A stretch of 64,000 nucleotides of DNA from Thermoanaerobaculia bacterium. Lineage in GTDB: Bacteria; Acidobacteriota; Thermoanaerobaculia; UBA5066; Gp7-AA6. The position numbers were made by a program, and so were the translations under genes. The number at the start of each line of letters is the position of its first letter. Positions within the stretch are counted from its first letter, which is position 1. Shown here in pieces: positions 2,401-63,297 of the stretch. The notes beneath the pieces were generated by a model. That model did not search any database. It was not told the origin of the DNA and worked only from the letters and a program-made list of their open reading frames with translations. The stretch lies in the NCBI GenBank assembly GCA_038239305.1, contig JBBSEW010000003.1:51022-115021 (forward strand). The letters run 5' to 3'.

Positions 2401-2527
2401 TCGATCCTCCGATCACCCGATTCCCCGATCCCGCGATCAGCCGATCAAACTCGATCCTCGATCTCCACTTCACGCGATAGTTCGATTGATCGCGAGATCA
2501 TGAGATCGCGAGATCGCGAGATTCGGC
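2401..2527. repeat. GATC-rich composite repeat ending in an 8-bp array (GATCGCGA/GATCATGA)
   Basis: 11 GATC sites counted in 2401..2520. Octamer array at 2488..2523. It contains GATCACCCGATT (2411..2422), identical to 881..892. Confidence 0.9.
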
Positions 2528-7606: not shown

Positions 7607-7639
7607 CCTCTCCCGGCGGGAGAGAGCCGGGGTGAGGGG
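7607..7639 (+). repeat. REP-like 33-nt palindromic element, copy 2
   Basis: CCTCTCCCGGCGGGAGAGAGCCGGGGTGAGGGG, 35 nt after the permease stop. One mismatch to copy 1, and the shared upstream GCGCTTCC context is also present. Confidence 0.85.
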
Positions 7640-11412: not shown

Positions 11413-11439
11413 TGGTGGGCGCTCGATAAGAAGCGATCG

Positions 11440-11490
11440 GTCAGTGGATCGTCAGTGGATCCGAGGATCCGAGGATCCGTGGATCAGTGG
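11440..11490. repeat. Tandem array of GGATC-ending units (GTCAGTGGATC x2, CGAGGATC x2, CGTGGATC)
   Basis: Direct reading. The array overlaps the stop codon (11484..11486) of the secreted-protein gene. Confidence 0.85.
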
Positions 11491-23736: not shown

Positions 23737-23746
23737 GGAGCCCGGC

Positions 23747-23790
23747 GGGAAACGGAAAACGGGAAACGGGAAACGACGACGGAAAACGGG
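23747..23790. repeat. 7-bp tandem array (GGGAAAC/GGAAAAC, reverse complement of the CGTTTCC family)
   Basis: Direct reading. It fills the 67-nt spacer between the subunit IV and subunit III genes. Confidence 0.9.
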
Positions 23791-23803
23791 AGCCTAGACA
23801 CTG

Positions 23804-26228: not shown

Positions 26229-26290
26229 CCGTTTCGTCCGGTCCTTCGCCCTCCGATACGATCGCGACCGTCTCGACAACCCGATTTCCA

Positions 26291-26349
26291 GATGACCAGA
26301 TGACGAGATCGATCGCGAGATCACGAAATCATGAGATCGCGAGATCGCC
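26291..26349. repeat. 8-bp tandem array (GATGACCA, GATGACGA, GATCGATC fragment, GATCGCGA, GATCACGA, AATCATGA, GATCGCGA)
   Basis: Direct reading. Same family as 2488..2523, 48923..48986 and 59359..59398. Confidence 0.9.
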
Positions 26350-28546: not shown

Positions 28547-28573
28547 GGCCGCGATTCTATCGCGGGCGATCCG

Positions 28574-28594
28574 CTGTCCGCTGTCCGCTGTCCG
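28574..28594. repeat. 7-bp tandem array (CTGTCCG x3)
   Basis: Direct reading. It lies in the 51-nt spacer between the MFS gene stop and the zinc-ribbon gene start. Confidence 0.9.
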
Positions 28595-28597
28595 CTC

Positions 28598-33797: not shown

Positions 33798-36506
33798 GTG
33801 AAGAGAGTTTTCTTTTTCGGCAACGGCGTTGCGGAGGGAGCGGGTCTCGGGAAGGAAACCCTCGGAGGGAAAGGATCCGGGCTCGCGGAAATGACCGCGC
33901 TCGGGATTCCCGTTCCGCCGGGCTTCACGATCGAGACGGCCGTGTGCGCCGATTTCTCGCACGGCGCGAGCCTCGACGGCGTCCGCGACGAGGTCGAGTC
34001 CTCGCTCGCGCACCTCGAGCAGACGACGGGCAAGAGGTTCGGCGACGCCGTCGATCCGCTGCTCGTCTCCGTGCGGTCCGGCGCCCGGTCCTCCATGCCG
34101 GGCATGATGGACACGATCCTGAACCTCGGGTTGACGAAGAACGCGCTGAAGGGCCTCGCGGCCGCGTCCGGAGACCGTTTCGCGATGGACTGCCGGCGAC
34201 GCTTTCTCGAGATGTATTCGGACGTCGTGCTCCGCGTGCCGCGCGAAGAGTTCGAGAGCGTGCTGGCCGCACAGAAGAAGGCCCGCGGCGTCGCCTCGGA
34301 TCTCGAGCTCGGAGCGGACGACCTCGCCGCGATCGTCCATCGCAGCGAAGAGATCGTCCGGGCCAAGACCGGCAAGGACTTTCCGGACGACGCGCGCGAG
34401 CAGTTGTGGGGCGCGATCGCCGCGGTCTTCCGCTCCTGGGAGAACGATCGCGCCAAGACCTATCGCAAGCTGCACCACATCCCGGACGACTGGGGCACGG
34501 CCGTCAACGTCCAGTCGATGGTTTTCGGAAACCGGGGGGAGACGTCGGCGACCGGTGTCGCCTTCACCCGCGATCCGTCGACGGGGGAGCGCCTTTTCTA
34601 CGGAGAGTTCCTGCCGAACGCGCAGGGGGAGGACGTCGTCGCGGGGATCCGCACGCCGCGCCCGCTCACGAAGGATGGGTCGGGGACCTCCCTCGAGGAG
34701 ACGATGCCGGAGGCATTCGCGGAGCTTCTGCGGCTGCGCGACGTCCTCGAAATGCGATATCGCGACATGCAGGACCTCGAGTTCACGATCGAGGATCGAA
34801 AGCTCTATCTCCTCCAGACACGCAGCGGGAAGCGAACGGGATTCGCCGCCGTCCGGATCGCCACCGAAATGGTCGACGAGGGACTCATCTCGGAAGAAGA
34901 GGCCATTTCGCGCGTGGAATCGGAGCAGCTCATCCAGCTCCTGGCGCCGGTGTTCCCCGGCAAAGAGAAAGAGATGGCCGTGAAGGGTGGCCGGTTCCTC
35001 GGCAAGGGCCTCCCCGCGGGGCCGGGAGCGGCTTGCGGCCGCGTGGCTTTCACGGCCGAGCGGGCGGTGGAGATGGCGAATACCGGCGAGCCAGTCATCC
35101 TCGTGCGCGAGGAGACGTCGCCGGAAGACATCGCCGGCATGCACGCCTCCGTCGGCATCCTGACGACGCGAGGTGGCATGACGTCGCACGCGGCCGTCGT
35201 CGCGCGCGGCATGGGGAAGACGTGCGTCGTCGGCGCGGGGGACATTACCGTCGACCTGGCGCATGGCCAGGTTCGTGCCCTCGGTCTCTCTGCCTCGGAA
35301 GGGGACTGGATGTCCGTCGACGGGTCCACGGGCGAGGTCATCCTCGGGCAGCTCCCGACGTCGCCCTCCGAAGTCCTGCGCGTCGTGATCGGGGGCGCGA
35401 TGCCGGTCGAAGAATCGGCCGTGGCGCTTTCATTCACCCGACTCCTCGCGTGGGCGGACTCCCGCCGCCGGCTGGGAGTCCGGGCCAACGCCGACACTCC
35501 GGAGGATGCCCGCATCGCCCGGCTCTTCGGAGCCGAGGGCATCGGGCTGTGCCGTACCGAGCACATGTTCTTCGAGGAGAAACGGATCCTGGCCGTCCGC
35601 GAGATGATCCTCGCCCACGACGGCGAAGGGCGGAGGGCGGCGCTCGCGAAGATTCTCCCCATGCAGCGCGAGGATTTTCTCGGGATCTTCCGGGAGATGG
35701 GCGGAAGGCCCGTGACGATCCGTCTGCTCGATCCGCCGCTGCACGAGTTTCTGCCGAAGGAGGAGGAAGCGGTGCGCAGGACGGCGGAGGACCTCGGCGT
35801 GTCCCCCGAATTCGTGCGCGAGCGCGTCCACGCCCTGGCCGAGGTCAACCCGATGCTCGGTCACCGCGGCTGCCGGCTCGGCATCACGCACCCCGAGATC
35901 TACGAGACCCAGGTCTGCGCGATTTTCGAGGCCGCCGCGCTGGCGCTCGCGGAGGGCGTCCATCCCAATCCCGAGATCATGATTCCCCTGGTCGGCGCAA
36001 AGGGCGAGTTCGATCGGCTGAAGAAGCTCGTCGACGAGACGGCGAAGAGGATCGCGGGCAATCGCGTCAACTACCGCGTCGGAACCATGATCGAAGTACC
36101 GCGCGCCGCCCTGCGCGCCAACCGCATCGCGTTGAACTGCGATTTCTTCTCGTTCGGGACGAACGACCTCACGCAGCTGACCTACGGCTATTCGCGCGAC
36201 GACGCCGCGTCGTTTCTCCCGGCCTACATCGCGGAGGGGATTCTCCCGGAGGATCCGTTCGTGAGCCTCGATCAGTACGGCGTCGGAGAGCTCGTCTCGC
36301 TCGCGACGCGGCGCGGAAGGGAAGCGAAGCCCGGCCTCAAAGTGGGCATCTGCGGCGAGCACGGGGGCGATCCGCGCTCGATCGAGTTCTTCCACACGGT
36401 CGGACTCGACTACGTCTCCTGCTCCCCGTTCCGCGTCCCGATCGCCCGTCTCGCGGCGGCCCGCGCGGCGATCGCGGGGGGAGTGTCCGGGTCGGCGACG
36501 GCGTGA
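33798..36506 (+). CDS. ppdK: Pyruvate, phosphate dikinase
   Basis: 902 aa. Phosphohistidine motif GGMTSHAAVVARG, an N-terminal ATP-grasp domain and a C-terminal PEP-utilizing TIM barrel (FFSFGTNDLTQ). Confidence 0.95.
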   Translation: MKRVFFFGNGVAEGAGLGKETLGGKGSGLAEMTALGIPVPPGFTIETAVCADFSHGASLDGVRDEVESSLAHLEQTTGKRFGDAVDPLLVSVRSGARSSMPGMMDTILNLGLTKNALKGLAAASGDRFAMDCRRRFLEMYSDVVLRVPREEFESVLAAQKKARGVASDLELGADDLAAIVHRSEEIVRAKTGKDFPDDAREQLWGAIAAVFRSWENDRAKTYRKLHHIPDDWGTAVNVQSMVFGNRGETSATGVAFTRDPSTGERLFYGEFLPNAQGEDVVAGIRTPRPLTKDGSGTSLEETMPEAFAELLRLRDVLEMRYRDMQDLEFTIEDRKLYLLQTRSGKRTGFAAVRIATEMVDEGLISEEEAISRVESEQLIQLLAPVFPGKEKEMAVKGGRFLGKGLPAGPGAACGRVAFTAERAVEMANTGEPVILVREETSPEDIAGMHASVGILTTRGGMTSHAAVVARGMGKTCVVGAGDITVDLAHGQVRALGLSASEGDWMSVDGSTGEVILGQLPTSPSEVLRVVIGGAMPVEESAVALSFTRLLAWADSRRRLGVRANADTPEDARIARLFGAEGIGLCRTEHMFFEEKRILAVREMILAHDGEGRRAALAKILPMQREDFLGIFREMGGRPVTIRLLDPPLHEFLPKEEEAVRRTAEDLGVSPEFVRERVHALAEVNPMLGHRGCRLGITHPEIYETQVCAIFEAAALALAEGVHPNPEIMIPLVGAKGEFDRLKKLVDETAKRIAGNRVNYRVGTMIEVPRAALRANRIALNCDFFSFGTNDLTQLTYGYSRDDAASFLPAYIAEGILPEDPFVSLDQYGVGELVSLATRRGREAKPGLKVGICGEHGGDPRSIEFFHTVGLDYVSCSPFRVPIARLAAARAAIAGGVSGSATA

Positions 36507-36537
36507 TGGCGTGCAGTTGTCAGTGGGCGGCCTTCCG

Positions 36538-36594
36538 CTGTCCGCTGTCAGTTCTGAGTTCTGAGTTCTGAGGTTGGGTTTGGTTTTTGGGTTT
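36538..36594. repeat. Heptad-phased tract (CTGTCCG, CTGTCAG, TTCTGAG x3, GTTGGGT, TTGGTTT, TTGGGTT)
   Basis: Direct reading: eight consecutive 7-nt units. Confidence 0.9.
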
Positions 36595-36681
36595 CGAATT
36601 ATTCTCGCGGGGCTTCGAGCCAGGCACCGAACCGGATACGGGAGAAGGGATAACGGAGTACGGCCCGGCCGCCTGCGAGCC

Positions 36682-36737
36682 GAGAGCGGAGAGCTGAGAG
36701 CTGAGAGCTGAGAGCTGAGAGCTGATAGCTGATAGCT
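36682..36737. repeat. 7-bp tandem array (GAGAGCG, GAGAGCT x5, GATAGCT x2)
   Basis: Direct reading. It ends 7 nt before the ATG of the amidohydrolase gene. Confidence 0.95.
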
Positions 36738-36744
36738 TAACGCC

Positions 36745-38406
36745 ATGCTCTGGCTCGCCACCCTCATCCTCCTGGCGCGGGTCTCTCCCACGCCGGAAGC
36801 TCCACCCCCCGCAGACCTCGTGCTCGTGTCTGCGAAGATCTGGACCGGCGACCCGGCACGTCCTGAGGCGGAGGCGCTCGCGGTCCGGAGCGGGCGCATC
36901 GTCGCGGTCGGAACGAATGCCGCGATCGAGAAGCTTCGAGGCCCGTCGACGACCGTCGTGGACGGAAAGGGCCGGCGCGTCCTTCCCGGCCTGATCGACG
37001 CGCACACCCACATGTCGGGAGGAGGCCTCGACCTTCTGGCGCTCGACCTGCGGCACACGAAGGACCCGGCCGATTTCACGAAGATGGTGGCGGACTACGC
37101 GAAGACGCGGCCGGAAGGCGTCTGGCTGACGGACGGCGCATGGGATCACGAGCAGTGGTCGCCGGTCCGGCTTCCGACCCGGGAGATGCTCGATCCCGTG
37201 ACGACCGGTCACCCGACCTGCCTCCCGCGCCAGGACGGCCACATGTCCGTCTGCAATTCCCTCGCGCTTCGACTCGCGAAGATCGGGCGCGGAACGCCGG
37301 ACCCGCCCGGAGGCGTCATCGTCCGGGACGCGAACGGAGAGCCGACGGGCGTGCTGAAGGACGCGGCGATGGATGCGGTCAACGCGGTGCGGCCGGCTCG
37401 GACGCGAGCGGAGCTGCTCGGTGCGCTGCGGGCGGCCATGAAACACGCCGCGAGCGTCGGCGTGACATCCGTTCAGGATCTTCCCGGCGATCCGGACGAC
37501 CTCGGTACATGGGAGGCGCTGCGAGCGGCCGGCGAGCTGACCGTGCGCGTGCACTATCGGCTTCCGCTCTCGAGCTGGGAGAAGGCCCGCGACCGGCGCG
37601 CGTCCATGAGAAACGACGAGTGGCTTCGACTCGGAGGCGTGAAGGGCTACGCCGACGGATCCCTGGGCTCGGAGACGGCGCTGTTCGACGCCCCCTACGG
37701 CGGGGATCCGAACAACCGGGGCGTGTTCGCGTCGGAAGCCATTCCGATGTCGCGCCTCGAAGAACGCGTCGCCGGAGCGGACAGGGCGGGGCTCCAGGTC
37801 GTCATCCACGCCATCGGTGACCGCGCGAACGCGGAGATCCTCGACGTGTACGAGAGGGTGGCGCGCGCGAACGGACCTCGCGACCGCCGGTTCCGCATCG
37901 AGCACGCGCAGCACCTTCGCCCGGCGGACATCGCGCGGTTCGCGCGGCTCGGCGTCGTGGCATCGATGCAGCCGTACCACGCAATCGACGACGGCCGGTG
38001 GGCAGAGTCGCGGATCGGTCGGGAGCGCAGCCGGACCACGTACGCGTTTCGATCGCTTCTCGACGCCGGCGCCCGGTTGGCTTTCGGTTCCGACTGGGAC
38101 GTCGCCCCGCTGTCGCCGATCTTGGGCATCGACGCGGCGGTCACGCGGAGGACTCTCGACGGCAGGAATCCCGAGGGCTGGTTCCCGGAGCAGCGGATCT
38201 CCGTCGGAGAGGCTGTCGCGGCGTACACGTCGACCGCTGCCTGGGCCGCGTTCGAGGAGAACGAGAAGGGGACGTTGTCCGAGGGAAGGCTCGGAGATTT
38301 CGTCGTTCTCTCGCGGGACCTTCTCGCCGTTCCGAAGGACGAGATCGTCCGGACGCAGGTCGACGAGACCGTCGTCGGCGGGAAGATCGTTTACACGAGG
38401 CGATGA
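36745..38406 (+). CDS. Amidohydrolase family protein (amidohydrolase_3/YtcJ-like), secreted
   Basis: 553 aa with a signal-like N-terminus. Metal-binding GLIDAHTHM near the N-terminus and HAIGD / H..H blocks further on. Confidence 0.8.
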   Translation: MLWLATLILLARVSPTPEAPPPADLVLVSAKIWTGDPARPEAEALAVRSGRIVAVGTNAAIEKLRGPSTTVVDGKGRRVLPGLIDAHTHMSGGGLDLLALDLRHTKDPADFTKMVADYAKTRPEGVWLTDGAWDHEQWSPVRLPTREMLDPVTTGHPTCLPRQDGHMSVCNSLALRLAKIGRGTPDPPGGVIVRDANGEPTGVLKDAAMDAVNAVRPARTRAELLGALRAAMKHAASVGVTSVQDLPGDPDDLGTWEALRAAGELTVRVHYRLPLSSWEKARDRRASMRNDEWLRLGGVKGYADGSLGSETALFDAPYGGDPNNRGVFASEAIPMSRLEERVAGADRAGLQVVIHAIGDRANAEILDVYERVARANGPRDRRFRIEHAQHLRPADIARFARLGVVASMQPYHAIDDGRWAESRIGRERSRTTYAFRSLLDAGARLAFGSDWDVAPLSPILGIDAAVTRRTLDGRNPEGWFPEQRISVGEAVAAYTSTAAWAAFEENEKGTLSEGRLGDFVVLSRDLLAVPKDEIVRTQVDETVVGGKIVYTRR

Positions 38407-38455: not shown

Positions 38456-40216
38456 ATGGCGCGCGTCCACAAGCTCTCGAGCGCGGTCATCGATCGCATC
38501 GCGGCCGGCGAGGTCGTGGAGCGTCCCGCTTCCGTCGTCAAGGAGCTCGTCGAAAACGCGCTCGACGCGGGGGCGGCGCGGATCGACGTCGAGATCGACG
38601 GCGGGGGAATCGCGCGGATCCTGGTCCGCGACGACGGGTCCGGAATGTCATCCGAGGACGCGCGGCTGGCGCTCGAGCGCCACGCGACGTCGAAGATCTC
38701 GTCGGACGAGGATCTCGCCGCCGTGTCGAGCTACGGGTTTCGCGGTGAAGCTCTTCCGTCGATCGCATCGGTTTCCGCGTTGACGGTGACGACCTCGGAC
38801 TCGGCCTCCGGCGAGGCCGTGCGCATCCGGTCGGACTTTGGAACCCCGCCCGTCGCCGAGCCGGCTGCGCGGCCCCGGGGGACGGACGTCCTCGTCGAGA
38901 ACCTCTTCGCGAAGACTCCCGCCCGCCGAAAGTTTCTCTCCTCCCCGGAGGCCGAGGGCCGCGCGGCCGCAGCCGCAGTGACGCGCGCGGCCCTGACGAA
39001 CTCGTCCGTGGCGTTCTCCCTTCGGTCTTCCGGCCGGGAGCTGCTCGACGCGCCGGCGGCGGTCGACCGGTCCGCGCGAATCCTGCAGGTCTTCGGCCGC
39101 GAAACGCTCGGCGAGCTCGAGCCGTTCGAGGCCCGCTCGGGCGCCCTCCGAGTTTCCGGATTCGTGACGCGGGGGTCGGTCACGTTCGCGAGCCGGCGAT
39201 TCCACTATCTCTTCGCGAACGGACGCCCGATCGAGGATCGGTCGCTCGCGCGGGCGATCGGCCAGGCGTCGCGCGACGCGATTCGGACCGACCGCCATCC
39301 TGCGGTGTTTCTCTTCCTGACTGCCGAGCCGGGGGCTCTCGACGTCAACGTGTCGCCCTCGAAAACGCAGGTTCGTTTCGCCGACTCCGGCACGGCGTAC
39401 CGTCTCGTGTACCACGCCGTCCAGTCGGCGCTCCTCTCGGGGAAGGAGGAGCGACGGTTGAAGCCGGTTCCGGCCGGCCCTTTCGAGGCGTCGCGCGTCG
39501 GCGAGGCCTCTGCGCCGTATCCGGCCGGAGAAGGAGCGGGAGCGGGCCCCTCATCGGTTCCTCCGCCGTCGATCGCGGGTTCCGGAATCGGGCCCTCGGA
39601 GATGCGTTCGTCCGATCCGGCGACCCCGGCCGAACGGCGCCCGCCCGAGACGGTTCCGATCGGGCAATACCGCGAGTCCTTCATCCTCGCGTCGGGACCG
39701 GAAGGTCTTCTCGTCATCGATCAGCACGCGGCCCACGAGCGCGTCCTGTACGAGCGGATCCGGGACCGGATCGCCTCCGGACGGCTTCTATCGCAGCGGC
39801 TCCTCGTTCCCGCTCTCTTCGAGGCGACACCGGAGGAGGCGGAAACGCTCGCGCTGCGGGAGCCTGACCTCGAGGCGGCGGGTTTCGAGATCGCGCCCAT
39901 GTCCGGGCGCTCGTTCGGGATTTCGGCCCTGCCGGCGGAGGCTCTCTCGCGGACTCCCGCGGAAATGCTGCGGGAGGCGCTTGCGCGGCTCGCCGAGACC
40001 GGGACGGCCGACGAGGGGGAGCGCCGCGACCGCATGGCGGCCGGGATCGCGTGCCGGTCCGCGGTGACCATTCGATACCACCTGGCGCCCGAAGAGATCC
40101 GCCGCCTTGTTTCGGACTGGATGCGCTGCGAGGACCGCTTCACGTGCCCGCACGGCCGCCCGGTCGTGCTGTCGATGAGCGAGGAGGAGCTCGAGAAGTA
40201 CTTTCACAGACGGTGA
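38456..40216 (+). CDS. mutL: DNA mismatch repair protein MutL
   Basis: ATG at 38456. GHKL ATPase motifs IAAGEVVERPASVVKELVENALDAGA and DDGSGM, plus a C-terminal dimerization/endonuclease region. Confidence 0.95.
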   Translation: MARVHKLSSAVIDRIAAGEVVERPASVVKELVENALDAGAARIDVEIDGGGIARILVRDDGSGMSSEDARLALERHATSKISSDEDLAAVSSYGFRGEALPSIASVSALTVTTSDSASGEAVRIRSDFGTPPVAEPAARPRGTDVLVENLFAKTPARRKFLSSPEAEGRAAAAAVTRAALTNSSVAFSLRSSGRELLDAPAAVDRSARILQVFGRETLGELEPFEARSGALRVSGFVTRGSVTFASRRFHYLFANGRPIEDRSLARAIGQASRDAIRTDRHPAVFLFLTAEPGALDVNVSPSKTQVRFADSGTAYRLVYHAVQSALLSGKEERRLKPVPAGPFEASRVGEASAPYPAGEGAGAGPSSVPPPSIAGSGIGPSEMRSSDPATPAERRPPETVPIGQYRESFILASGPEGLLVIDQHAAHERVLYERIRDRIASGRLLSQRLLVPALFEATPEEAETLALREPDLEAAGFEIAPMSGRSFGISALPAEALSRTPAEMLREALARLAETGTADEGERRDRMAAGIACRSAVTIRYHLAPEEIRRLVSDWMRCEDRFTCPHGRPVVLSMSEEELEKYFHRR

Positions 40217-40256
40217 GAGCGGCCTCGCGGCCGCTCGCGGGATTCGGTTATCGGTC

Positions 40257-40337
40257 AGCTATCAGGTATCAGCTATCAGCCACTCGTTTCCCGTTTCCCG
40301 TTTCCCCGGGCTTCGTTCTCTCGTTCTCTCGTTCTCT
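40257..40337. repeat. Three adjacent arrays: AGCTATC/AGGTATC x3, CGTTTCC x3, CGTTCTCT x3
   Basis: Direct reading (40257..40277, 40285..40305, 40314..40337). Together they fill the convergent spacer between mutL and 40342..40977. Confidence 0.9.
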
Positions 40338-43908: not shown

Positions 43909-44146
43909 CGGGAGAGCTTCGGAGTGTGAAATGGTCGGGCTCGAGATCGGCGAATTCGCTTCGTTTATGACGGTCCTCGTTCAGGTGACAGGGGTCGGTG
44001 GCAGGCGACCGGGTTTCGAAATGGAGTGCGGCGTGGCTTGCCTTGCCGCGGCCGCCGGGAGCCAGGGATCGTGATCATCACTCATCCGGCGACCGGCATC
44101 GAACATCCGGCTCATTCTAGCCGAAATGATTGACGGAATTGATCTT

Positions 44147-44176
44147 TTGACTTTGTTCGACGCTCTGCGAAAGAAT
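44147..44176 (+). promoter_or_regulatory. Possible sigma70-like promoter for the liv operon (TTGACT-N18-AAGAAT)
   Basis: -35 at 44147..44152 and a -10-like hexamer at 44171..44176. The spacing is one nt longer than optimal. Confidence 0.25.
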
Positions 44177-44215
44177 ACGCCGTCTTTCCGTTTCTCATTC
44201 GAGGAGGCTTCATCC

Positions 44216-45367
44216 ATGAGGTTGCGTACCGCACTCGCCGCCGTGGCGGCCGCTGTTCTGGTCACTATTCTCGCGTGCGCCAAAGCGAGCTCGGGCAATG
44301 AAATCCTGGTCGGAGAATACGGCTCGCTGACCGGCGGAATCGCGACTTTCGGCATCTCGACCCGCGACGGTTCCCAGCAGGCCTTCGACGAGATCAACAA
44401 GGCGGGCGGAGTCCTTGGCAAGAAAATCAAGCTCCTCGTCGAGGATGACCAGAGCAAGCCCGAGGAAGTCGGAACGATCGTCACGAAGCTCATCAACCAG
44501 GATCACGTCGTCGCGATGCTCGGCCACGTGGCCTCGACCCATTCGCTCGCCGCGGCCCCCGTCTGCCAGAAGAACGGCATCCCGATGATCACGCCCTCAT
44601 CTACCAATCCGGCCGTCACCCAGAAGGGCGACTACATCTTCCGCGTCTGCTTTATGGACACGTTTCAGGGCGCGACGATGGCGAAGTTCGCGGCCGACAC
44701 GCTGAAGGCGAAGAAGGTCGCGATCCTGGTGGACGTCCGCAGCGACTACTCCGTGGGCCTCAAGGACGTCTTCAGCGAGAACTTCACGAAGCGCGGCGGC
44801 AAGATCGTCGTCGTGCAGTCCTACAGCCAGGGCGACTCCGACTTCCACGCGCAGCTCACCCAGATCAAGGCGACCTCCCCCGACGCGATCTACGTGCCCG
44901 GGTACTACACGGAGGTCGGCACCATCGCCCATCAGGCGAAGGAGCTCGGCGTGACGGTGCCTCTCATGGGAGGCGACGGCTGGGACTCGCCGAAGCTCTG
45001 GGAGATCGGCGGCGAGGCGCTGAACGGATGTTTCTTCTCGGATCATTATTCGACGGACGACCCGTCGCCGATCGTCCAGAAGTTCGTGACCGAATACAGG
45101 TCGCGCTACAAGCAGACTCCGGACGCGCTGGCCGCGCTCGCCTACGACGCCGCCAAGATCCTCGCGGAGGCATTCACGCGCGCGGGGACGACCGAGGGTC
45201 CGAAACTGCGCGACGCGATCGCCGCGACGAAGGATTATCAGGGCGTGACCGGGAAGATCACGCTCGACAAGGATCGCAACGCGGTCAAGCCGGCCACGGT
45301 GCTGAAGGTCGAGAACGGCAAATACGTCCTCGTCGAGACGATCTCGCCGGAGTCGGTCAAACTCTGA
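44216..45367 (+). CDS. Branched-chain amino acid ABC transporter substrate-binding protein (LivJ/K-like lipoprotein)
   Basis: GGAGG (44203..44207) precedes ATG 44216, and a lipobox-like ILAC is present. Type I periplasmic binding-protein fold blocks are present (LVEDDQSKPEE, GHVASTHS). Confidence 0.85.
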   Translation: MRLRTALAAVAAAVLVTILACAKASSGNEILVGEYGSLTGGIATFGISTRDGSQQAFDEINKAGGVLGKKIKLLVEDDQSKPEEVGTIVTKLINQDHVVAMLGHVASTHSLAAAPVCQKNGIPMITPSSTNPAVTQKGDYIFRVCFMDTFQGATMAKFAADTLKAKKVAILVDVRSDYSVGLKDVFSENFTKRGGKIVVVQSYSQGDSDFHAQLTQIKATSPDAIYVPGYYTEVGTIAHQAKELGVTVPLMGGDGWDSPKLWEIGGEALNGCFFSDHYSTDDPSPIVQKFVTEYRSRYKQTPDALAALAYDAAKILAEAFTRAGTTEGPKLRDAIAATKDYQGVTGKITLDKDRNAVKPATVLKVENGKYVLVETISPESVKL

Positions 45368-48922: not shown

Positions 48923-48986
48923 GATCTCGCGATCTCGCGATCTCATGATCTCGCGATCGATCGTTCGATCGTGGGATCGGGTGATC
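48923..48986. repeat. 8-bp tandem array with GATC in phase (GATCTCGC x2, GATCTCAT, GATCTCGC, GATCGATC, GTTCGATC, GTGGGATC, GGGTGATC)
   Basis: Direct reading. This is the reverse-complement orientation of the 2488..2523 array. Confidence 0.95.
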
Positions 48987-49018
48987 GGGAACTTCGATCG
49001 CGGAATGCGGATGCCGGG

Positions 49019-59358: not shown

Positions 59359-59398
59359 GATCTCGCGATCTCATGATCTCGCGATCGATCGAACTATC
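59359..59398. repeat. 8-bp tandem array (GATCTCGC, GATCTCAT, GATCTCGC, GATCGATC, GAACTATC)
   Basis: Direct reading. The reverse complement of 59359..59398 matches 2476..2515 with one mismatch over 40 nt. Confidence 0.95.
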
Positions 59399-61169: not shown

Positions 61170-61188
61170 GTCGGTCGCCTAATAAAAT

Positions 61189-61220
61189 AAGGCCGGAGGT
61201 CACTCCGGCCTTATTTATTT
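61189..61220 (+). terminator. Rho-independent terminator after glnA
   Basis: 10-bp stem AAGGCCGGAG / CTCCGGCCTT (61189..61198, 61203..61212) with a 4-nt loop, followed by ATTTATTT. The A-rich tract upstream could make it bidirectional. Confidence 0.8.
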
Positions 61221-61241
61221 AGTCCTGTTTCCAGGGAGCAG

Positions 61242-63198: not shown

Positions 63199-63297
63199 GT
63201 TTTTAGTTTTTAGTTTTTAGTTTTTAGTTTTGAATCTTGGGTTCTGGGTCTTGGGTCTTGGGTCTTGGGTTTTGAATTCCGGGTTTTCGAGTCTTGG
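63199..63297. repeat. Heptad-phased tract of about 14 units (GTTTTTA x4, GTTTTGA, ATCTTGG, GTTCTGG, GTCTTGG x3, ...)
   Basis: Direct reading. The first 35 nt are strikingly AT-rich for this genome. It occupies the divergent spacer between queA and the MBL gene. Confidence 0.95.

Follow-up and report, generated by a model that had tools for sequence, protein, structure and literature searches.

Tandem 7- and 8-nucleotide repeat arrays in the gene spacers of a Thermoanaerobaculia genome, and a predicted hairpin between ppdK and an amidohydrolase gene

What makes and keeps tandem arrays of 7- and 8-nt units in bacterial gene spacers, and do such arrays act on the genes beside them? The question is raised by positions 36507-36744 of a 64,000-nt stretch of DNA (the window, analysed at its full length) from contig JBBSEW010000003.1 of a Thermoanaerobaculia bacterium (Acidobacteriota; assembly GCA_038239305.1). 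These positions form the spacer between ppdK and an amidohydrolase gene, which a first-pass annotation of the window had singled out for its short tandemly repeated repetitive (STRR)-like units. Heptamer arrays have reportedly been known in bacterial genomes since 1990 (as STRR), with genome-wide counts following in 2007. The window arrays belong to the STRR-like class of long simple sequence repeats, LSSR(5-11), and the phenomenon is thereby extended to Thermoanaerobaculia, an uncultured soil lineage. The explanation favoured here, tentatively and at slightly under an even chance, is that arrays driven by slippage are tolerated at the 3' sides of genes and that a large subset of them would form stem-loops comparable to repetitive extragenic palindromes (REP) and bacterial interspersed mosaic elements (BIME).

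The genes of the window were mapped from codon usage, several being verified against Pfam, and arrays were sought with Tandem Repeats Finder (TRF). The spacer and its surroundings contain the following features.

33798-36506: PPDK, checked against Pfam.
36531-36572, + strand: left arm, consisting of CTGTCCG, CTGTCAG and then three copies of TTCTGAG.
36534-36549: TCCGCTG x2.3, as reported by TRF.
36550-36572: AGTTCTG x3.3, as reported by TRF.
36572-36594, + strand: inner left arm of degenerate, G/U-rich GTTGGGT-type units, predicted to form G-U pairs with GAGAGC-type units at 36673-36690.
36673-36737, + strand: right arm of degenerate units followed by (GAGAGCT)x5 and (GATAGCT)x2, ending 7 nt before the ATG; reported by TRF as CTGAGAG x9.3 (period 7, 91% matches).
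36745-38406: Amidohydro_3 protein, checked against Pfam.
38456-40216: MutL, checked against Pfam.

Folded as plus-strand RNA, 36507-36744 is predicted to form a single stem-loop of about 86 bp (46 GC, 24 AU and 16 GU pairs) with an energy of -115 to -117 kcal/mol (z -5.2 to -5.9), the minimum-free-energy structure being the same as the centroid. The stem extends from 2 nt past the ppdK stop codon to the base immediately 5' of the amidohydrolase ATG. Its arms pair in register, CTGTCAG with GATAGCT at 7/7 positions and TTCTGAG with GAGAGCT at 6/7, whereas as DNA motifs the two arms match at only 5/7. Dinucleotide shuffles destroy repeats, so a further null that preserves the arrays was used, with unit positions permuted in each arm independently; none of 1000 such permutations folded as well as the spacer (null mean -91.3, sd 5.5). 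Minus-strand RNA gave -68 kcal/mol (z -0.7), and neither strand was significant when folded as DNA (z -1.15 and -0.08). Because significance is reached by the sense RNA but not by the antisense RNA or by either DNA strand, the only significant structure predicted at this spacer lies in the fold of the sense transcript. The predicted complementarity in register of the left (CTGTCAG, TTCTGAG) and right (GAGAGCT, GATAGCT) arrays is the main structural feature of the spacer, and had been overlooked by the first-pass annotation. Units are homogeneous within each arm and divergent between arms, which fits slippage. No sigma-70-like promoter and no terminator-like site was found around the spacer (36300-36900), and scans of the window with Rfam and for tRNA gave no matches.

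Under the favoured explanation, slipped-strand mispairing would create, resize, and homogenise the arrays, which would survive only where a length change of 7 or 8 nt spares both reading frame and promoter. Transcripts of paired arrays would fold into an intercistronic or 3' stem-loop of the REP/BIME kind. At the flagged spacer, ppdK probably shares a transcript with the amidohydrolase gene, and the hairpin of about 86 bp would span the spacer from stop codon to start codon. Such a hairpin would be expected to protect or process the ppdK message, either by blocking 3' exonucleases or by serving as an RNase III substrate, and to sequester the ribosome-binding region of the amidohydrolase-mutL cistrons, whose expression would then no longer be coupled to that of ppdK. 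An effect that is generic rather than gene-specific would leave unit sequences free to be swapped in evolution. If the stem-loop part of this explanation is true, the arrays would be a REP-like, easily resized insulation of adjoining cistrons. REPs affect mRNA stability, as well as translation termination when they lie near a stop codon.

The spacer is one of many with repeats in the window (67% GC), which holds about 20 tandem arrays of 7- or 8-nt units at roughly 0.2-0.3 per kb, with a top TRF score of 95. TRF recovered a period-7 or period-8 array at every coordinate where the first-pass annotation had placed one, including the array within the cox operon, which fills the 67-nt COX4_pro-COX3 gap. 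With thresholds of at least 3 copies and at least 85% identity, a strict detector found 13 period-7/8 arrays in 5.45 kb of non-coding DNA, against 0.02 expected from 200 dinucleotide shuffles, and 1 in 58.5 kb of coding DNA; the repeats inside genes of the window have periods 3 and 6. Arrays are present in 9/19 spacers of at least 100 nt and in two short ones, so the earlier description of arrays in nearly every sizeable spacer was overstated.

The first-pass annotation had also allowed that the arrays might be assembly artefacts. This was rejected: two Logan contigs of run SRR24807096 show 100% identity to the window, these independent assemblies of raw reads thus agreeing with it, and comparable arrays are found in isolate genomes and in megabase contigs of metagenome-assembled genomes (MAGs). 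One contig (L001) starts at 36701, inside the GAGAGCT array, and crosses the arrays at 40255-40337 unchanged; the other (L190) ends at 63228, inside the GTTTTTA array. Ends within long arrays are typical of k-mer assemblers, and the copy number of the longest arrays depends on the MAG assembler. In practice, the arrays break short-read assemblies and may be mistaken for regulatory motifs or small RNAs.

Three further sets of loci were compared: seven syntenic recO-glyQ-glyS-ppdK-amidohydrolase-mutL loci from related MAGs; 80 metagenome loci (838 kb) anchored on the amidohydrolase gene and therefore unbiased as to repeats; and at least 104 genome loci matching a GATC-octamer pattern (GATCTCNNGATCTCNNGATCTC scan). 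The matches listed in the third set come from Acidobacteriota, Polyangia, Planctomycetota, Nitrospirota, Bacteroidota, Proteobacteria, actinomycetes, and cyanobacteria; among these listed matches are isolate genomes and megabase-scale MAG contigs, and some matches are coding. The unbiased set contributed 104 kb of non-coding DNA, in which arrays with 3 or more copies had period 7 in 40 cases and period 8 in 13, while every other period from 2 to 16 was represented by 0-1 arrays; coding DNA had periods 3 and 6 only. Density over the 838 kb was 0.054 per kb, with zero arrays at most loci. Convergent spacers carried 2.99 arrays per kb, co-directional spacers 1.0-2.0, and divergent spacers 0.45. 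The earlier claim that convergent, tandem, and divergent spacers have arrays alike is thus right in that all types have them, but the distribution is uneven, with convergent spacers enriched and divergent spacers depleted. To what was known of such repeats, the comparison adds the near-exclusive period of 7 and then 8, the bias to the 3' side, the frequency of inverted pairs, and the fast replacement of units at fixed spacers. Heptamer arrays are a common feature of viral or proviral DNA as well: heptad patterns of five units on CTGA, AGTC or GCTA were each found in at least 119-120 stretches of IMG/VR viral contigs (loci L195-L507), some contigs holding 6-7 arrays.

Inverted pairing is frequent. 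A reverse-complement partner of at least 2 units within 300 nt was found at up to 1 mismatch for 30% of 104 arrays (0-1% for reversed or complement controls) and at up to 2 mismatches for 46% (controls 1-4%). Neighbouring arrays of the same period were at least 85% complementary in 37% of cases, compared with 10.8% for random pairs. In 13/27 pairs, no more than 10 nt separated the upstream stop codon from the start of the first array, and the median loop was 42 nt. Examples of tandem-repeat hairpins, 35 in number, come from many taxa, and hairpins with tandem-repeat arms are present in Acidobacteriota, Polyangia, Planctomycetota, Nitrospirota, Beta- and Gammaproteobacteria, and Bacteroidota. 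A nested form was seen 3' of mutL in two relatives (L108 13475-13674, L194 13450-13644), where inverted heptamer arrays (CGTGAGG/CCTCACG and GGGTGAG/CCCTCAC) surround an inner element; this element is a canonical A-tract/hairpin/T-tract terminator in L108 and a further array, (CGATTCC)x5, in L194.

Several results weigh against the favoured explanation. Only 2-3 of the approximately 20 window arrays have an inverted partner, and the array spacers at 23737-23803, 28547-28597 and 26229-26360 fold no better than shuffles. Among 72 co-directional array spacers, the sense strand was not favoured over the antisense in fold stability (54%, p = 0.99); selection on sense-strand RNA as a general rule (G-U asymmetry) was rejected on this result, and because of it the strand asymmetry of the flagged spacer is an extreme case and not the rule. 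The arms of 27 pairs did not mirror each other in their variant units (combined p = 0.97), which leaves the pairing without covariation support, and the array class overall has no signature of selection on RNA pairing. At least five T follow within 10 nt of the stem in 5/32 paired elements. Finally, the sharp 7/8 period is left unexplained by passive slippage, as are units that recur within and between genomes and a 35-nt octamer element that is conserved at 35/35 positions beside flanks of 66-77% identity.

T-runs after so few stems, together with the lack of any terminator-like site at 36300-36900, also led to rejection of an intrinsic terminator as the identity of the hairpin. A bidirectional intrinsic terminator is present elsewhere in the window, at 61170-61241 (AAAATAAGGCCGGAG...CTCCGGCCTTATTTATTT; z about -7 on both strands); the genome thus uses canonical terminators, and the repeat hairpins differ from them.

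The amidohydrolase protein has a 100% identical counterpart on a 121.7-kb NCBI contig and in Logan assemblies. Its nearest homologues, at about 80% identity, are named as proteins of Thermoanaerobaculia/Acidobacteriota MAGs, and synteny is shared with such MAGs; spacers were compared among relatives whose amidohydrolase is 74-81% identical. The ppdK-amidohydrolase spacer of L108 has TCAGTTT units at its left side and AACTGAC units at its right, that of L109 has GATCGG[GA]T (GATCGGAT) x11 with an inverted remnant, and that of L191 has a degenerate TCAGCNN run. In L106 and L193 there is a REP-like element and no arrays, and in L107 the spacer is an empty 49 nt. The spacer between the MFS gene and a small open reading frame (ORF) and the spacer downstream of mutL have arrays in several lineages, with different units in each. 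One pair of near-identical assemblies (L191/L192) is available, and these are identical in all spacers. The promoter-like region 5' of a livK-like gene is well conserved in genomes where array units differ. Arrays therefore persist or recur at particular spacers while the unit sequence is replaced, and arrays fixed to spacers with swapped units argue against gene-specific recognition of the sequence.

Despite this turnover, units recur. As the first-pass annotation had stated, families are found at distant loci in both orientations: 14 same-family pairs in either orientation were counted among 21 window arrays, where 0.27 were expected and 2000 unit shuffles gave no more than 4. The families are the following, by start position.

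CGTTTCC: 836 and 40285; 23746 as the reverse complement.
GATCGCGA: 2488 and 26311; 48923 and 59359 as the reverse complement.
GATCGGGT: 747 and 48966; 2409 as the reverse complement.
TCCGCTG: 28570 and 36534.
GATAGCT: 36718; 40255 as the reverse complement.

Units also recur in other genomes, CGTTTCC in L108, GATCGGGT in L109, L006, L070 and L103, and CTGAGAG in L159 and L070. One element is built of four octamers, GATCGCGA-GATCATGA-GATCGCGA-GATCGCGA-GAT, with four copies in the window (2488-2522, 26311-26348, and, as reverse complements, 48923-48958 and 59359-59386). Its 35-mer GATCGCGAGATCATGAGATCGCGAGATCGCGAGAT is identical at 35/35 positions in two other MAGs, in both immediately 5' of glgA (L013 5797-5831; L042 3620-3654), and the flanks there are 66-77% identical. 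Each octamer of the 35-mer is GA plus a 6-bp palindrome (TCGCGA or TCATGA). A mini-ORF of 7-16 codons (MRSRDRE...) begins at the ATG of the 35-mer and, in L013 and L042, has a TGA that overlaps the TTG with which glgA starts. The 22-mer core had no match in the viral contig scan.

In heptamer units from many phyla, CTGA/TCAG is enriched (32/147 against 9.3 expected, z 7.8), as is TGA/TCA (59/147 against 32, z 5.7); GTA/TAC is depleted, and the enriched cores have no sense/antisense bias. The CTGA core is common to the published TAACTGA (Beggiatoa) and MTYCTGA (Geobacter) units. The possibility that the heptamer TGA serves as an all-frame stop, or was seeded by the upstream stop codon, was rejected on the counts of stop-proximal TGA (38 sense, 39 antisense); a second count, of arrays with stops in three frames, gave 32 against 27. 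Arrays of Shine-Dalgarno-like units (CAGGAGG, CAGGAGAT) are found in other Acidobacteriota in inverted pairs with anti-Shine-Dalgarno-like arrays (GATCTCCT), at L034 3444, L010 2961, L079 220, L057 2205 and L060 1561. GGTGATC is another unit with Shine-Dalgarno or anti-Shine-Dalgarno resemblance, and the window unit GGGTGATC complements the 3' end of 16S rRNA (GAUCACC). Coincidence may account for these likenesses.

Similar repeats have been described before, including in high-GC genomes, so the suggestion in the first-pass annotation that there was no such precedent is wrong; LSSR(5-11) and the arrays of Xanthomonas and Geobacter metallireducens are all examples. A literature search for such repeats in Thermoanaerobaculia or Acidobacteria found none. 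Repeats of 5-11 nt, heptamers foremost, are over-represented in Burkholderia, Xanthomonas, actinobacteria, and cyanobacteria according to the part of Mrazek 2007 related in PMC4679880. As LSSR(5-11) (Mrazek, Guo and Shah 2007, again as far as PMC4679880 relates it), they occur among free-living bacteria with large genomes, high-GC ones included, with units that are not a multiple of 3 kept from genes and slippage proposed as the source. The window arrays are likewise longer than chance allows (13 against 0.02), and heptamers are dominant and non-triplet units excluded from coding DNA (40 arrays at period 7, 13 at period 8). However, the 2007 work is a genome statistic and, in the part so related, does not include inverted pairing, a 3'-side bias, or Acidobacteriota.

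In Xanthomonas (65% GC), arrays of GGGAATC are 89-93% intergenic, form 70-75 convergent inverted pairs, lie near the upstream ORF, are more frequent in convergent than in divergent spacers, and differ in length from one related species to another (Rehm et al. 2015, PMC4692102). The GGGAATC repeat forms a G-quadruplex in vitro (PMC4692102), and the same has been proposed for GGGGAYT of Nostoc. A high-GC host, a bias to spacers, and inverted pairs are common to both, and GGGAAAC of the window is one base from GGGAATC; however, Xanthomonas has essentially one G-rich family, whereas the window has more than 10, mostly without G tracts, as well as octamers. Geobacter metallireducens has 3-5 tandem units of 7-9 nt, mostly as opposite-strand pairs at variable distance, in the families GTTGCTYN, TCTCCGTS[Y] and MTYCTGA; one species has them and its sister species does not, and the paired sites were read as binding sites of a global regulator or of IHF/HU, some being tied to insertion sequences (Aklujkar et al. 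2009, PMC2700814). MTYCTGA resembles GTTCTGA of the window, but no link to insertion sequences was seen in the window. The TAACTGA repeats known from Beggiatoaceae and cyanobacteria lie upstream of start codons and are direct repeats in nearly every case (PMC4679880), and heptamers affecting recO/recF expression in Nostoc have been published. With these and the STRR the window arrays share intergenic tandem heptamers at many loci, few families, and a CTGA-type core, and the relative L108 carries TAACTGA itself; the host differs in phylum and GC and is not a heterocystous cyanobacterium.

The STRR1-3 units of Mazel et al. 1990 are said to be CCCCA(G/A)T, TT(G/T)GTCA and CAACAGT, respectively. 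No window array matches these units, exactly or at 1 mismatch. The label STRR-like is therefore apt for phased 7/8-nt arrays in a few recurring families, but the window arrays are an analogue and not a member of the cyanobacterial family. The REP/BIME elements are also extragenic, at gene 3' sides or within operons, in both orientations, rare between divergent genes (here 2.99 against 0.45 per kb), and patchy among genomes. In contrast, a REP is a single imperfect palindrome, 20-40 nt long, that has a conserved 5' tetranucleotide and a link to REP-associated tyrosine transposases (RAYTs), while the stems here are varying tandem units with unique loops and flanks. A separate REP-like palindrome, CTCTCCCGGCGGGAGAG[G/A]GCCGGGGTGAGGGG, is present at 2363-2394 and 7608-7639, both in convergent spacers (0 expected), and has relatives in the ppdK-downstream spacers of L106, L193 and L194, making it a second dispersed extragenic repeat family. 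CRISPR, in which repeats of 24-48 nt alternate with unique spacers of about the same length, were rejected as an identity of the window arrays since the units are 7-8 nt and contiguous, and simple sequence repeats of the phase-variation type, which lie in the reading frame or between the promoter elements of a surface or virulence gene and switch its expression through copy number, were rejected since the arrays lie 3' of housekeeping genes (ppdK, mutL, cox, MFS), mostly outside promoter-bearing spacers.

If no function is needed, then the arrays could be a mutational by-product, with slippage expanding 7-8-nt units under weak selection and hairpins arising along with the rest. This is possible, though on the unlikely side. 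It is how Mrazek 2007 viewed LSSR(5-11), to the extent that PMC4679880 gives that view. It agrees with the fast turnover, arrays being wholly absent in the close relatives L106 and L107, with the patchy density (0.054 per kb, most loci zero), with the absence of sense/antisense bias in folding, stop codons, and the CTGA motif, and with the absence of mirrored covariation between arms; purifying selection alone would be expected to keep arrays from coding DNA and from divergent promoter spacers. It does not account for families that recur in 14 pairs against 0.27, with identical units in other genomes and phyla, for CTGA/TCAG at 32/147 against 9.3, for the 35/35 element beside diverged flanks, for inverted partners 10- to 30-fold above controls, or for orthologous spacers that repeatedly bear arrays, even though with different units.

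Hairpins with tandem 7/8-nt arms may also be a distinct cross-phylum class of 3'-side elements made and maintained by a dedicated mechanism, either a factor that reads one unit per 7-8 nt or templated copying. Such a mechanism would account for the period of 7 and then 8, the TGA/CTGA-rich units across phyla, the recurrence of units, and the conservation of the four-octamer element; it is nevertheless considered unlikely.

More doubtful still are cooperative binding sites on double-stranded DNA, with one unit per 7 or 8 bp, either for ribbon-helix-helix (RHH) dimers of the omega/ParB-pSM19035, MetJ or ParG type or for a global regulator or IHF-HU as in Geobacter. Arrays bound by the RHH protein ParB/omega are contiguous 7-bp heptads, direct and inverted, of which at least 4 are needed (PMC9499535), and the 8-bp metbox and parH arrays offer a further RHH precedent (PMC3130281). 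The unit number and length of the present arrays, typically 3-6 units, fit RHH arrays, and their discrete recurring families and one fixed four-octamer element suit binding sites as well; arm complementarity that holds at the level of the family, unmirrored, suits a motif read in both orientations, and the authors of the Geobacter study proposed the same for very similar paired arrays (PMC2700814). However, inverted arrays here are separated by loops of 4-100 nt, unlike contiguous RHH heptads, more than 10 unrelated families in 64 kb would require many cognate proteins, and no candidate protein or gene was identified. Arrays are also depleted in divergent promoter spacers, where regulators act, orthologous spacers freely swap units, and the arms of the flagged spacer match at 5/7 as DNA motifs but at 6-7/7 as RNA.

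Structures other than B-form DNA, or the corresponding RNA structures, mainly G-quadruplexes in families with G3 tracts, are very improbable as the general explanation. GGGAAAC (836-876, 23746-23789, and 40285-40306 as CGTTTCC) is one mismatch from Xanthomonas GGGAATC, and at least four G3 tracts with 4-5-nt loops are present in (GGGAAAC)n at 836-876 on the - strand, in (GGGTGATC)n at 747-784 (ATCGGGTG), and in (GGGTCTT)n at 63235-63274 (TCTTGGG). Most families, however, have no G3 tract (GAGAGCT, TTCTGAG, TCCGCTG, GATCGCGA, GTTTTTA and TCGTTCTC), and G-quadruplexes leave the class as a whole unexplained. Least probable of all are copies of mobile elements with tandem-repeat ends, either like MITEs (small transposable elements with terminal inverted repeats) or REP-like and moved by a RAYT-type transposase, since, although identical units and the 35-mer are dispersed, the distribution at gene 3' sides is REP-like, and in Geobacter the distance between insertion sequences and paired octamer sites is fixed (PMC2700814), the sequence between paired arrays is unique to each locus (BLAST of the window against all loci matched only arrays, on which ground a MITE was rejected), no target-site duplications or conserved cores were seen, and there is no transposase gene within the 64-kb window.

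The remaining arrays of the window, all reported by TRF except where another source is named, are listed below.

747-784: ATCGGGTG x4.8, 100% matches, an 8-mer with GATC.
791-803 and 879-891: 13-nt inverted arms, 100% complementary; 879-891 is the inverted partner of the ATCGGGTG array at 747-784 (arm comparison).
836-876: CGTTTCC x5.9, 100% matches; its reverse complement GGGAAAC fits the G-quadruplex motif.
2409-2447: degenerate CCGATCAC x4.9 in a convergent spacer; the unit is the GATCGGGT family read as reverse complement.
2488-2522, + strand: 35-mer GATCGCGAGATCATGAGATCGCGAGATCGCGAGAT, four octamers with a fixed ATGA variant (TRF and unit comparison).
11435-11490: GATCGGTCAGTG x2.3, then GGATCCGA-type octamers x4.5.
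23746-23789: CGGGAAA/CGGAAAA x6.4 in the COX4_pro-COX3 gap, with both genes checked against Pfam.
26288-26348: CCAGATGA x2.8 and, after it, a GATCGCGA 35-mer family copy carrying 1 mismatch, which stops 12 nt short of the next start codon.
28570-28596: TCCGCTG x3.9 between the MFS gene, checked against Pfam, and a 74-aa ORF.
40255-40337: TCAGCTA x3.7 (the reverse complement of GATAGCT), CGTTTCC x3.1 and TCGTTCTC x3.1, contiguous, in the convergent spacer 3' of mutL.
48923-48987: GATCTCGC x4.5, which is the 35-mer family in reverse complement, with GATCG[TG]G / GATCGGGT units after it; the spacer is convergent.
59359-59386, - strand: reverse-complement copy of the GATCGCGA/GATCATGA element.
63199-63274: GTTTTTA x4.7, then TCTTGGG x5.7, in the sole array-bearing divergent spacer of the window.

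One conserved non-coding element of the window is of another kind. The gene for a periplasmic binding protein (livK-like) is preceded at 44116-44215 by a leader, GAATTGATCTTTTGACTTTG...GAAAGAATACG followed by GGAGG, with copies at L107 17225-17345, L108 17335-17436, L109 18640-18750 and L194 17367-17468. Long blocks are invariant in the five genomes, and the leader resembles a promoter with an operator or a leader; the gene in the window probably starts at an ATG near 44216 rather than at the called position, 44243.

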